Below are positions 13,787 to 17,537 of a stretch of DNA of 55,755 bases, piece by piece. The stretch is from Longicatena sp. (GTDB taxonomy: Bacteria > Bacillota_I > Bacilli_A > Erysipelotrichales > Erysipelotrichaceae), in contig JARHZK010000191.1 in assembly GCA_029258245.1 (NCBI GenBank), positions 1 to 55,755 of the forward strand, written 5' to 3'. The notes under the pieces were generated by a model that was not told the DNA's origin, did no database searches, and saw nothing but the letters and a program-made list of their open reading frames with translations. The position numbers and the translations under genes were made by a program. Numbering within the stretch: the first letter of the stretch is position 1; each line of letters begins with the position of its first letter.

Positions 13787-14263
13787 ATGTTTCGTATTGG
13801 ACAATCGAGTGATATTCATCAATTGGTGGCAAATAGAAAATTAATATTAGGTGGAGTGGAAATTCCACATGAAAAAGGATTATTAGGACATTCCGATGCA
13901 GATGCTTTATTGCATGCAATTGCAGAAAGTATTTTAGGAGCATTAGCTTTGGGTGATTTAGGAAAACATTTTCCAGATACTTCTGATGAATTTAAAGATA
14001 TGAATTCATTGTGGATGCTAAAGGAAGTATATAAGATGATGGATCAACATGGATATGAAATTCAAAACTTGGATGCACTTATTATGATTGAAAAACCGAA
14101 AATGGCTCCTCATATTTTAAAAATGAGAGAAAATGTAGCAAATGCTTTACATTGTGATCTTACACAAGTCAGTATTAAGGCTACTAGAGGAGAAAAATTA
14201 GGATTTGTGGGAAAAGAAGAAGGAGTACAAGCACAATGTATTGTGTTATTAAAAAGAAAGTAA
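13787..14263 (+). CDS. ispF: 2-C-methyl-D-erythritol 2,4-cyclodiphosphate synthase
   Basis: MFRIGQSSDIHQL..., GHSDADALLHAI, LGDLGKHFPD and ATRGEKLGFVG motifs. The ATG at 13787 is better spaced from GAGAGG than the track start at 13778. Confidence 0.9.
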   Translation: MFRIGQSSDIHQLVANRKLILGGVEIPHEKGLLGHSDADALLHAIAESILGALALGDLGKHFPDTSDEFKDMNSLWMLKEVYKMMDQHGYEIQNLDALIMIEKPKMAPHILKMRENVANALHCDLTQVSIKATRGEKLGFVGKEEGVQAQCIVLLKRK

Positions 14264-14329
14264 GAATTATTCTTAATTTCTGTTGACAAATAGAAAATTA
14301 AGATATATACTAAGAATGGTTCTTAAGAA
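14261..14329 (+). promoter_or_regulatory. perR-rbr promoter flanked by two Fur-family (PerR-type) 7-1-7 boxes
   Basis: TAAGAAT-T-ATTCTTA (14261-14275, perfect) and TAAGAAT-G-GTTCTTA (14311-14325, one mismatch) bracket TTGACA (14283-14288), a 17-nt spacer and TATACT (14306-14311). Confidence 0.6.
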
Positions 14330-14341
14330 AGGAGCTGGGAC

Positions 14342-14731
14342 ATGAAATACAAATCATCAAAACAAAGAGATATGATTATGAATTATTTACAACAAATTCA
14401 TGGACATGTATCAGCAGAAGAGATTTTCAAGAACATGAATAATGATGGACAAAAAATAAGTTTGGCAACAGTATATAGAAATTTAAATATACTATGTGAA
14501 ATGAATGAAATAAGAAAAATTGCCCATCCTGTAGACGGTTATCAATATGATAAAACAAGTCGACCACATTACCATATGCATTGTGTGAAATGTGATAGTA
14601 TTATTGATTTAGAAGCTCCTTATAGGGAAGAGTTGAACAAAATACTAGAAAAAGATAGTGATGTTAAAATTCTTTCACACAATATTATGGCAGAAGGTAT
14701 TTGTAAAGATTGTTTAAAAAAGGAAAGTTAA
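14342..14731 (+). CDS. perR: Fur-family transcriptional repressor, peroxide-stress type (PerR-like)
   Basis: 129 aa. There is a winged-helix N-terminus ([13 protein letters not shown]), HxH-type metal ligands (HYHMHC) and two CxxC pairs (CVKC, CKDC). It lies directly upstream of rubrerythrin. Confidence 0.8.
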
Positions 14732-14748
14732 AATTGGAGGAAAATAAC

Positions 14749-15288
14749 ATGGAATTAAAAGGATCAAAAACAGAACAAAATTTAATGGCAGCATTCGCTG
14801 GAGAAAGTCAAGCACGTAACAAATATACATATTTTGCTGAAATGGCACGTCAAGAAGGTATGGAACAAATCGCAGATATTTTTGAAGAAACTGCACGTAA
14901 TGAACAAGAACATGCTAAATTATGGTTTAAAGCATTAAATGGAGATAAAATTCCTACAACTGTTGAAAACTTAGTTGCAGCAGCTGAAGGTGAAAACTAT
15001 GAGTGGACTGATATGTATAAAGGATTCGCAGAAACTGCAAAAGCAGAAGGATTCCAAAAAATTGCATTCCAAATGGAACAAGTTGCTAAAATTGAAAAAC
15101 ACCATGAAGAAAGATATTTAAAATTATTAGAAAATGTTAAAAATGGAAAAGTTTTCGAAAAAGAAGAACCTACAGTTTGGGTTTGTGATATTTGTGGATA
15201 TCGTTATGAAGGAGTATCTGCTCCAAAAGCTTGCCCAGTATGTGGATATTCTGGTGCTCACTTTGCTGAAGAAGCAAATAATTTCTAA
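14749..15288 (+). CDS. rbr: Rubrerythrin
   Basis: [26 protein letters not shown] ferritin-like diiron domain with ExxH motifs, and a C-terminal rubredoxin fold (CDICG...CPVCG). The ATG at 14749 follows GGAGG. Confidence 0.9.
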
Positions 15289-15313
15289 TTAAATACATAG
15301 AATATTAATAATA

Positions 15314-15350
15314 AAAAGGATATGTAACGACAAGATACATATCCTTTCTT
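15314..15350 (+). terminator. Intrinsic terminator of rbr
   Basis: AGGATATGTA-ACGACAAGA-TACATATCCT followed by TTCTT. Confidence 0.75.
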
Positions 15351-15362
15351 ATGTAGTATTAG

Positions 15363-15462
15363 TAAAAAAAAGAGTTGGTGCTATCTATTCTAGTTTTGGG
15401 TAAGAATCATTAATTTACTATATGGGTGGGGGAAGAAGTAAATTAATAAGATAGCATCAACA
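15363..15462 (-). ncRNA. Candidate trans-acting small RNA of about 100 nt with a C-rich loop (three-way junction plus U-tract)
   Basis: Read on the minus strand, a 13-bp closing stem (15374-15386/15449-15461) encloses two hairpins. One is UUAAUUUACU-[UCUUCCCCCACCCAUAU]-AGUAAAUUAA and the other is AUUCU-[UACCCAAAACU]-AGAAU. The fold ends in U8 (15364-15371). A promoter lies just upstream. Confidence 0.45.
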
Positions 15463-15467
15463 TGTAT

Positions 15468-15496
15468 AATATAACTTATTTATTCATAGAAATCAA
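15468..15496 (-). promoter_or_regulatory. Putative sigma-A promoter of the candidate small RNA
   Basis: On the minus strand: TTGATT (15496-15491), a 17-nt spacer, then TATATT (15473-15468). The -10 element ends about 7 nt before the closing stem. Confidence 0.45.
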
Positions 15497-15650
15497 TAAT
15501 TTTTAGTAGAATTAGAAATATGAATTTTATTTAATTCTAAAATGAATTAAATTTCTTATTTCATTAAATTATAATCATTCATAATATAAATCGACTTGTA
15601 TTTGTATATATAATTAGTATAATAAAGAAAATCTTAAAGGATGTGAAATT

Positions 15651-16931
15651 ATGATACAAGAAGAAATATTTTTTGATTTGTCATTATTATCTTATTTTAA
15701 TTGTTATCAACTAGGAAATAGTGTATATGAGTTTATTGAAGAAATTTTAAACGATGAAAAATTATATCATGATTATGAATCGCTTGATTATTTTTTGATG
15801 AATTTAGAACTAGTGAAGAATATAGATAAAGAAAAATATAAAGATATTTATATTCGTAATTATGTAGATGATAATGCAAAAAGTGGAGTAGTATTCTATG
15901 TGTTCGAAACAAAAGAACAATTAATATTTGCATTTCGAGGAAGTGAACCTTTGGATGATATAGATCATACTACAGCATGGCAAGATTGGTCAGATAATTT
16001 TCGAATGTTTTTACCAGAACCTACATATCAACAAATTTATACACTTCATCTTTTGCAATCTATGAAAATTGATAAGCCGTTTTCTATGACAGGACATTCG
16101 AAAGGAGGCAATCTTGCTTTATATTGTGCTTTAACTATGCGACAAGATTTATTGAATCAACTTCAACAAGTTGTCTCCTTTAATGCACCGGGTATTACCA
16201 AGGAAATATTTGAATTATATAAAGATAGAAGAGAAACAATAGAGTTTCAAAATAAGTTAACCATATTTGAAAATGAAAATGATTGTGTATCCTCCTTTTT
16301 TGAACATTTAAAAGAACCAATTTATATTCAATCATCATTAAGTTGTAATAATTTAGAACAACTTTATCATAATCATAATTTATATGGAATGAAAGATTTT
16401 CGTAATCATGAATATCAAATTGTCAATAAAAAGACTGCAGTACCAATGGCTATATATTATTTTATTAATAACTTTTTTGTGAATTTAAAAGCATCTCATT
16501 TACAAAATTTAGTAACAAGAATGGATGATTACTTTGATAGTGATTTATCTATGTTTGAACTGTATCGTGTATTTATTTATCATATTAGTAAATATACAAA
16601 TTTATTTGAAGATATTGATTATGAAGAAGTTAAAACGATAACATTTCAAGATTTAATTGAAAGAAGAAAATCGAAAGTTATCTTAGATAAAGTGAAGCAA
16701 ATACAACCCAAAGATGCAATTAAAAAAGCTGTAGATGCAGTGAATGATATTGATATTCACAAAATAACACATGCAGTAATTAATAATTATGAATTATTAG
16801 TAAATAAAACATCACAAAATATTCAAGATTTGATTGCACAAAATAATGATATGATTCGTCATACAATTGAAGAAATACGACAACGAACAAAAAGAGTTGG
16901 AACTGCAGATAAAGAAGACTACTTGCATTGA
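15651..16931 (+). CDS. Mbeg1-like / DUF2974 alpha/beta-hydrolase (lipase-like) protein
   Basis: FAFRGSEP...WQDWSDNF and the nucleophile elbow GHSKGGNLALYCAL are typical of the DUF2974 family. The C-terminal extension is helical. Confidence 0.65.
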   Translation: MIQEEIFFDLSLLSYFNCYQLGNSVYEFIEEILNDEKLYHDYESLDYFLMNLELVKNIDKEKYKDIYIRNYVDDNAKSGVVFYVFETKEQLIFAFRGSEPLDDIDHTTAWQDWSDNFRMFLPEPTYQQIYTLHLLQSMKIDKPFSMTGHSKGGNLALYCALTMRQDLLNQLQQVVSFNAPGITKEIFELYKDRRETIEFQNKLTIFENENDCVSSFFEHLKEPIYIQSSLSCNNLEQLYHNHNLYGMKDFRNHEYQIVNKKTAVPMAIYYFINNFFVNLKASHLQNLVTRMDDYFDSDLSMFELYRVFIYHISKYTNLFEDIDYEEVKTITFQDLIERRKSKVILDKVKQIQPKDAIKKAVDAVNDIDIHKITHAVINNYELLVNKTSQNIQDLIAQNNDMIRHTIEEIRQRTKRVGTADKEDYLH

Positions 16932-16982
16932 TTATGAAAGTATAGTATTCTAATAGTAGAATATAAAGAAAGAAGGAATTTT

Positions 16983-17537
16983 ATGCCTTTAAAACACGCA
17001 ATTTTAGGGTTGTTAAATTATACAGATATGACTGGATATGATATTGATCGTTATTTTAAATCTAGTATTGCCTTTTTTTGGCACGTTCAAACGTCACAAG
17101 TATATAAAGAATTAAATACATTAACAGCAAATAATTGGCTTGAATCTGATATTGTATATCAAAGTGATAAACCAAATAAAAAAGTGTTTCATATTACGGA
17201 AGAAGGAAAAATTGAATTACATCGTTGGTTAGAAGATGCAGATTTAACAGAAATTATGAAATATAAAAATCCATTATTAGTAAAGATATTTTTCTCTAGT
17301 GAGGTTAGTGTAGATCAAACCATGCGATTATTGAATAAGTATATCGAAGAGTGTACATTGATTATAGAAAAGATGAATGTTGATTTAAATAAGATTCCTG
17401 ATTTTGAGTCAAAAATACATAAAGATAATGAATCTTTTTATTGGAGTATGACAATGACCTATGGATTTATGTATTATCAAAATGAAATAAAATGGGCAAA
17501 TTGGTGTATTGATAAATTAAAAGAAAAAATTGAATAA
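16983..17537 (+). CDS. PadR-family transcriptional regulator
   Basis: LKHAILGLLNYTDMTGYDIDRYFKSSIAFFWHVQTSQVYKELNTL winged-helix N-terminus plus a PadR C-terminal dimerisation domain. Confidence 0.8.
   Translation: MPLKHAILGLLNYTDMTGYDIDRYFKSSIAFFWHVQTSQVYKELNTLTANNWLESDIVYQSDKPNKKVFHITEEGKIELHRWLEDADLTEIMKYKNPLLVKIFFSSEVSVDQTMRLLNKYIEECTLIIEKMNVDLNKIPDFESKIHKDNESFYWSMTMTYGFMYYQNEIKWANWCIDKLKEKIE

Follow-up and report, generated by a model that had tools for sequence, protein, structure and literature searches.

A conserved RNA gene with C-rich loops in Erysipelotrichaceae, a candidate for antisense action at Shine-Dalgarno sequences

The window, by which we mean the whole stretch of 55,755 nucleotides analyzed here, carries on its plus strand a Fur-family gene (14342-14731), the rubrerythrin gene rbr, which lies 3' of it and ends at 15288, and an Mbeg1-like/DUF2974 gene (15651-16931). 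The open reading frame list starts rbr at a TTG (14710); the ATG at 14750, which stands behind a GGAGG and at which the N-termini of homologues begin, is probably the true start, giving a gene of 14750-15288. The gap between rbr and the DUF2974 gene is 362 bp long and contains, on the minus strand, a small RNA element that is single-copy in its 1.95-Mb genome (29.5% GC). Between rbr and this element a hairpin with T-rich flanks on both sides can be read from the sequence at 15315-15350 (AAGGATATGT ... ACATATCCTT). It received no call in a simple terminator scan; on the plus strand it could be the terminator of rbr, and it is possible that on the minus strand it acts as a second or back-up terminator for the small RNA. 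Both rbr and the DUF2974 gene lie on the plus strand, and, in agreement with the original prediction, there is no minus-strand gene that would need the terminator of the element itself.

The putative promoter of the element consists of a -35 hexamer TTGATT (15491-15496) and a -10 hexamer TATATT (15468-15473) on the minus strand, separated by a spacer of 17 nt, and is present at 15496-15468 as predicted. Promoter matches at 9 of 12 positions are no denser in this AT-rich region than chance predicts (13 observed compared with 12.2 expected from shuffles), so the combination is not significant when taken alone. It becomes convincing only through conservation: TTGATTT is invariant in 12 of 12 copies of the same architecture in other genomes, and homologues carry TATATT, TATACT or TAAACT at an equal distance from it. 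With the 5' end placed from the -10 hexamer and the 3' end at the end of a U8 tract, the predicted transcript is approximately 100 nt long (15364-15463, minus strand). A small open reading frame within it was considered and rejected, the sole frame being of six codons and unconserved.

Folding of the minus strand over 15363-15467 with RNAfold gave one dominant structure, a three-way junction (15374-15461) of -22.5 kcal/mol, compared with an average of -6.1 kcal/mol for dinucleotide shuffles, none of which (0 of 200) was equally stable (z = -7.75); the fold of the plus strand is less distinctive (z = -4.26). The closing stem P1 pairs 15449-15461, its 5' strand, with 15374-15386, its 3' strand, in 12 pairs and one A.C mismatch. 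Arm 1 (15408-15448) is a 12-bp stem (15437-15448/15408-15419; ten perfect pairs and a U.G end) that carries loop 1, the 17-nt UCUUCCCCCACCCAUAU (15436-15420), which is C-rich and invariant and is proposed as the main seed. Arm 2 (15387-15407) is a 5-bp stem with the loop UACCCAAAACU (15402-15392), in this genome a weakened copy of a second C-rich motif that in relatives reads UCU(U/C)CCCCCA. The closing stem is followed by UC and then by the U8 tract (15364-15371), and, judged from this arrangement, stem and tract form the RNA's own intrinsic terminator; both are kept in all copies of the architecture found in the window. The fold originally proposed, with its closing stem, two C-rich-loop arms and U8, is thus the one that RNAfold returned, at the same positions.

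In a BLAST-type search of relatives, one copy came from the same genus (92% identity, same rbr/DUF2974 context) and another, 72% identical, from a different genus (genome G012), where it lies between glucosaminidase and solute-binding-protein genes. The G012 copy keeps the -35 and -10 hexamers, loop 1, the second C-rich loop and the U tract, and its stems differ by compensatory changes. A covariance model (R1) built from these three sequences, the window included, matched over its full length in 28 of 151 genomes of Erysipelotrichaceae, representing 18 of 83 genera, nearly always as one copy. A second model (R2), built from 28 sequences, matched 16 of 75 Erysipelotrichaceae genomes but no genome of the sister family (0 of 74) or of the further families of the class that were sampled. 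Scanning 185,579 species genomes for a two-motif pattern yielded 45 loci, 29 of which R2 confirms. The confirmed records are Erysipelotrichaceae/Erysipelotrichales metagenome-assembled genomes (MAGs) and isolates, among them Longicatena caecimuris, Dielma fastidiosa, Breznakia, [Eubacterium] hominis and Copranaerobaculum intestinale (two copies), together with the loosely named uncultured Eubacterium sp., 'Clostridiales bacterium VE202-08', 'Clostridiaceae bacterium OM02-2AC' and 'Bacterium c-19'. The 16 pattern loci from other phyla (Geobacter, Binatia, Gemmatimonadetes and others) were not confirmed by R2 and were set aside. Among these, the model-negative pattern matches of an uncultured Geobacter MAG (loci L075, L087, L100 and L101) all have the same span of 51 nt, suggesting that this genome contains an unrelated repeat.

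Counting by motif gives a different picture from counting by model. The 13-mer TTCCCCCACCCAT is present in 77 of 401 genomes, a figure to be read as an upper bound for the small RNA. Of 12 model-negative matches to it, nine are antisense in coding DNA, two belong to another small RNA scaffold and one is a missed copy; because the 13-mer also occurs antisense inside protein-coding genes, censuses based on the motif only over-count the RNA. The antisense loci (L214-L219 and L221-L223) include several that share the peptide TMGGGTYA. Two near-identical copies of a different scaffold (L212 and L213, in genome G034, which matches Dielma fastidiosa) carry the same C-rich loop (AUUUCCCCCACCCAUUA) on a single hairpin behind their own promoter, and with the family member of that genome form a sibling set with one common seed. 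Additionally, a diverged member with the loop UUUCCCCCCACUAACA was found in genome G006 (L318:1470-1640; R2 score 27 bits, genome-wide E 0.002). Since this copy was initially missed by the first searches, all counts of non-carriers given here are upper bounds.

The stems of the RNA covary. In the 28-sequence alignment fitted to the model, standard pairs fill 93.7% of pair cells, compared with 30-42% for slid partners. Double-sided changes occur in 28 of 29 pairs, and none of 500 shuffles reached the covariation observed. All 12 pairs of the closing stem have changes on both sides, with 97% of cells paired, and all 12 pairs of arm 1 show compensatory changes. An independent alignment with MAFFT and RNAalifold, restricted to 11 sequences of the window's type, recovered the same three helices with compensatory changes in 12 of 25 pairs. 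Conservation of a different kind is seen in the unpaired parts: the segment TCTTCCCCCACCCA is at least 90% conserved across the 28 sequences, which span about 18 genera and GC contents of 30-47%, as is the CCC core of the second motif, and the loop UCUUCCCCCACCCAUA and the second UCU(U/C)CCCCCA motif are invariant.

The same alignment bears on which strand encodes the RNA. The original prediction cautioned that the one non-Watson-Crick position of the closing stem, A.C on the minus strand, slightly favored the plus strand. The G012 homologue has G-C at that position, and on the C-rich strand G-U pairs outnumber A.C pairs by 57 to 12, a count that is supportive rather than decisive since it was taken on the model-fitted alignment, which leans the same way. 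The C-rich (minus) strand is thus supported as the RNA. Conservation and covariation, both of which had been proposed as checks, were accordingly found: compensatory changes appear in the fitted and in the independent alignment, and homologues occur in at least 18 genera, including a relative with the same flanking genes.

Promoter, RNA and terminator relocate together among unrelated gene neighbourhoods, demonstrating independence from gene context. With a single copy here and one, rarely two to three, per genome elsewhere, the element lacks the many copies expected of a MITE-like repeat or other mobile element. The prediction of a self-contained minus-strand unit is upheld by the joint conservation of promoter, covarying stems, C-rich loops and terminator in at least 18 genera and in differing contexts. 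By these comparative criteria the unit is a conserved gene and not a chance hairpin, and we hold with high confidence that a conserved, structured, independently terminated RNA gene exists at this locus.

Two architectures were distinguished. The window's type, seen in at least eight genera, has the -35 element TTGATTT and a closing stem that doubles as the terminator. In the second type, in which the RNA totals approximately 150 nt, the promoter is TTGACA; a hairpin with a GNRA-like loop is added 5' of the same core, and a spacer leads from the core to a terminator of its own. This type lies within a conserved gene block, downstream of genes for a HAD hydrolase, a peptidase C26 or DedA, and upstream of NUDIX, AlaX-like or radical SAM genes.

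The Rfam comparison that had been suggested for RsaE and other families returned no matching family. Scans with Rfam 15 of the region at E <= 10 and of 15 homologous loci at E <= 0.1 gave noise only; 6C was not found in either at these thresholds, and the LhrC model is not among the matches for the region. The RsaE model (RF01820) had no match in 14000-17000 at E <= 10, and its best match in the whole genome, at another locus, scored 17.1 bits compared with a gathering score of 79 bits; in a control search the model recovered the family in B. subtilis. In the searchable literature we found neither the motif nor small RNAs of Erysipelotrichaceae, and the motif was likewise not found in those supplementary files of a human-microbiome structured-RNA survey that were available, which are part of the full set.

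The proposed likeness to RsaE/RoxS therefore divides into an analogy that stands, that of a C-rich RNA of the Shine-Dalgarno-pairing type, and a family relationship that does not, as the RsaE covariance model fails to match. Both RNAs are about 100 nt long, with their own promoter, an intrinsic terminator and repeated C-rich motifs in unpaired regions, and action at Shine-Dalgarno regions is, by analogy, proposed for the new RNA as well. The C-rich regions of RoxS pair at the Shine-Dalgarno sequence, and the roxS locus lies among redox and oxidative-stress genes (PMC4409812), as the present RNA does next to rbr and, in a relative, the desulfoferrodoxin gene dfx. They differ in the motif, which is UCUUCCCCCACCCAUA here, in the fold, a three-way junction with a terminator stem as opposed to a row of hairpins, and in their hosts, Bacillales as opposed to Erysipelotrichaceae only, with no R2 matches in the other Bacilli families sampled. 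A further mark of RsaE/RoxS is induction through ResDE/SrrAB or Rex; for the new RNA no regulator site was recognised, and neither a ResD nor a Rex site was identified.

The closest mechanistic model is 6C of the Actinobacteria, which presents on a compact fold two hairpin loops, each with a run of about six C, to which the two C-rich loops of the new RNA may correspond, and whose C-rich loops have been found experimentally to pair, chaperone-free, with the G-rich ribosome-binding sites of several mRNAs (PMC6486639). The two differ in phylum, loop sequence and helix arrangement, and no Rfam match connects them. In the new RNA, loop 1 has the form CCCCC-A-CCC, and loop 2 has CCC here; its counterpart in relatives has CCCCC and is frequently a single-stranded segment instead of a hairpin loop. 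C-rich loop seeds also recur in paralogous small RNAs, namely the Listeria LhrC family and the S. aureus Rsa RNAs with their UCCC motifs. The occurrence of two to three copies in some genomes, and of another scaffold with the same loop in Dielma, resembles such sibling sets, which differ from the present RNA in that there is no sequence or model match. Since no Rfam family matches, RsaE and 6C included, the RNA appears to represent a new family of a known kind, that of C-rich-loop, Shine-Dalgarno-pairing small RNAs, and to be a member of neither of those two.

Taken together, these observations suggest the following mechanism. The interval 15364-15496 of the minus strand is a stand-alone, Erysipelotrichaceae-specific gene whose product is a non-coding RNA of about 100 nt, and whose transcription we infer to start from a sigma-A-type promoter. 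The three-way junction would expose a UCUUCCCCCA-type motif twice in single-stranded form, once in the invariant loop 1 and once in loop 2, whose copy here is weakened. As a trans-acting antisense RNA, it would pair through these C-rich loops with G-rich stretches in the translation-initiation regions of mRNAs, and this pairing would block ribosome binding and/or trigger decay, as for RsaE/RoxS and 6C. We consider an antisense, Shine-Dalgarno-pairing mechanism to be more likely than not, although well short of assured. A candidate target is the glycogen-synthesis operon, whose glgC gene has a poly-G Shine-Dalgarno sequence in most carriers.

Searches for targets on a genome-wide scale gave little signal. 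In this genome, GGGGG occurs in the Shine-Dalgarno window of 25 of 1991 called genes, and a duplex scan at <= -14 kcal/mol retained 81 of 1991 start regions compared with 35 of 1277 internal windows, a weak enrichment. Perfect seed matches at the Shine-Dalgarno sequence belong to a gene of 358 amino acids (GGGGGAAGAAU-AUG) and to a predicted lipoprotein gene. Over 694 orthologue pairs formed with G143, a carrier genome that is complete (46.7% GC), duplex-energy ranks showed no correlation (Spearman rho 0.06, p = 0.11), three top-5% orthologues were common to both genomes where 1.8 are expected, and G-run Shine-Dalgarno sequences were shared no more often than expected; among the longest contiguous pairings only truA was common to both, at different positions. 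Given the crude gene calls and energy model used, these two-genome results represent a failure to detect a conserved regulon, not the absence of one. Across 36 carriers, the complement of the seed followed by ATG was found 297 times compared with 104 times for the reversed pattern (2.9-fold); this enrichment was rejected as a target signal, as it is expected of any purine-rich Shine-Dalgarno sequence and most of the first matches inspected were not gene starts.

The glgCD operon was gathered from 27 further carriers, in addition to G000 and G143, and from 29 non-carriers. Under the initial classing, a run of at least five G in the glgC Shine-Dalgarno sequence is present in 20 of 29 carriers and 4 of 29 non-carriers; with G006 reclassed as a carrier, the counts become 21 of 30 and 3 of 28, and for such a run at either glgC or glgD, 27 of 30 and 7 of 28, the five-G threshold having been picked after the data were seen and the glgC association being phylogenetically clustered. 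The typical carrier glgC Shine-Dalgarno sequence is CCUAAGGGGGGAUUUAC-AUG, partly within a small hairpin. On a tree of GlgC and GlgD, a clade of non-carriers nested among the carriers has canonical GGAGG in eight of nine genomes, and from this placement appears to have reverted to it. Presence of the small RNA changes five to six times on this tree, giving five to six independent contrasts, of which 3.3-4.5 are concordant and 0.1-0.3 discordant; the sign test gives p >= 0.06 and with so few contrasts cannot reach 0.05.

Within this genome, glgD (GAGGGGGGAAUAAU-AUG) forms a predicted duplex with loop 1 of -18.0 kcal/mol, ranking 13th of 1991, and the ABC ATPase gene just 5' of glgC ranks 68th. 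The glgC Shine-Dalgarno sequence of this genome and its congener is GGGAGGG, which pairs poorly (-10.7 kcal/mol and rank 342 in this genome). We therefore regard glgC/glgD as the best candidate target but as a lead, not a finding, and one that is more apt to fail than to hold. A cre-like site (TGTAAACGCATACA) lies 113 nt upstream of glgC, upstream of the promoter region (G000 contig C205, locus L254), and relatives have TGAAAACGCATACA (L259-L266, L268 and L270-L273), which suggests CcpA-type catabolite control of the glycogen operon.

In E. coli, the protein CsrA binds GGA motifs at glgC, and the small RNA CsrB sequesters CsrA. If the glgC/glgD lead holds, both systems would control glycogen synthesis post-transcriptionally, through the ribosome-binding site in a glgC leader; they would differ in that a protein acts in E. 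coli whereas here the RNA itself would pair with the poly-G Shine-Dalgarno sequence. Extended to its full form, the idea is of an RNA-only regulator of glycogen storage that pairs with a co-evolving poly-G Shine-Dalgarno sequence of glgC and/or glgD, with loss of the RNA followed by reversion to GGAGG and with placement beside rubrerythrin and desulfoferrodoxin providing a link to redox; this we put forward tentatively, as a doubtful proposition.

The same loops could instead be read by a protein. In such a sequestering or scaffold RNA, the two UCUUCCCCCA loops would be sites for a KH domain or another protein that prefers poly(C). The 16-17-nt loop, invariant across genera of 30-47% GC, exceeds what a short Shine-Dalgarno seed needs, the motif is presented twice, and the duplex scans detected no conserved mRNA regulon, all of which would suit a protein ligand. 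However, a sponge would be expected to carry more than two copies of a motif, no candidate partner gene accompanies the RNA, whose neighbours differ between the two architectures, the known Gram-positive small RNAs with C-rich loops act via base pairing, and the co-variation with the poly-G Shine-Dalgarno sequence of glgC points to pairing as well. We judge a protein-binding role to be unlikely and retain antisense pairing as the preferred reading.

The second architecture raises the question of whether the RNA is a cis-acting 5' leader or attenuator, or the relic of one, which controls a downstream gene through termination and read-through. In at least eight genomes (e.g., L044, L047, L048, L050, L053-L055; G143:C1:53100-53830), the Shine-Dalgarno sequence of the NUDIX gene lies approximately 25-45 nt past the terminator, and because a gap of this size leaves no room for a promoter, the NUDIX gene must be fed by read-through. 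In L049-L055, moreover, UGCCUC on the 3' side of the 5' hairpin is complementary to GAGGCA in the 5' arm of the terminator, a pairing that could act as an antiterminator, but for which covariation is lacking and which other clades do not have. In the window, by contrast, the small RNA is convergent with rbr, and no gene on its strand lies downstream of it. An orthologue of the NUDIX gene is missing from this genome, which nevertheless retains the small RNA, and copies of the window's type are mostly convergent with the neighbouring downstream genes, which vary; for these reasons the RNA is not merely a leader. Furthermore, conservation resides in the hairpin loops rather than in a junction pocket. 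A cis-acting leader, or the relic of one, is thus a very improbable explanation of the element.

A local role at perR-rbr, in which read-through from rbr would pair or collide with the small RNA and so tie it to peroxide stress, was weighed on the evidence of the neighbourhood. The layout in which rbr, preceded by the Fur-family gene, converges on the small RNA is kept in G000, G001, G087 and G088, with gaps of 63-180 nt; however, the four group closely on the GlgCD tree, so that the arrangement may have been inherited once. The hairpin of rbr itself lies between both genes, and in most carriers the RNA is found elsewhere. A PerR-type box (TAAGAATNATTCTTA) was sought at the small RNA promoter and is absent there, with only the two perR-rbr promoter boxes standing out. 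Such a device has very little probability in our view. Finally, although promoter-like hexamers are no commoner here than in shuffles, the notion that the element is no gene at all but an oversized terminator or a chance inverted repeat in an AT-rich spacer is scarcely credible in light of compensatory changes in at least 18 genera, invariant loops, a promoter at fixed distance and relocation as a unit.

Returning to the trans-acting antisense RNA, its surroundings suggest a redox theme of the kind seen at the roxS and rsaE loci. The RNA adjoins rubrerythrin in three related genera, one Copranaerobaculum copy adjoins desulfoferrodoxin and a 4Fe-4S protein, another locus holds a Crp/Fnr regulator and a ferredoxin-like gene, and a further one holds MerR and an aldo/keto reductase. 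The peroxide theme of the original prediction thus has the support of the neighbourhood, through rubrerythrin and desulfoferrodoxin, with no PerR-type box at the promoter of the RNA; a redox link of the small RNA itself is best treated as a working hypothesis.

Erysipelotrichaceae are common gut commensals for which we found no described regulatory small RNA. The family reported here comes with a covariance model, a clear anatomy and cultured carriers (Longicatena caecimuris, Dielma fastidiosa, Copranaerobaculum intestinale and [Eubacterium] hominis), and thereby offers an entry to post-transcriptional control in this group. By analogy, it seems to have arrived independently at the strategy of RsaE/RoxS and 6C, in which C-rich loops are directed at G-rich ribosome-binding sites. 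The tracking of RNA presence by the poly-G Shine-Dalgarno sequence of glgC provides a directly testable target hypothesis and, if it is true, the placement of the RNA beside rubrerythrin and desulfoferrodoxin would tie carbon storage to oxygen and redox stress in these gut anaerobes.
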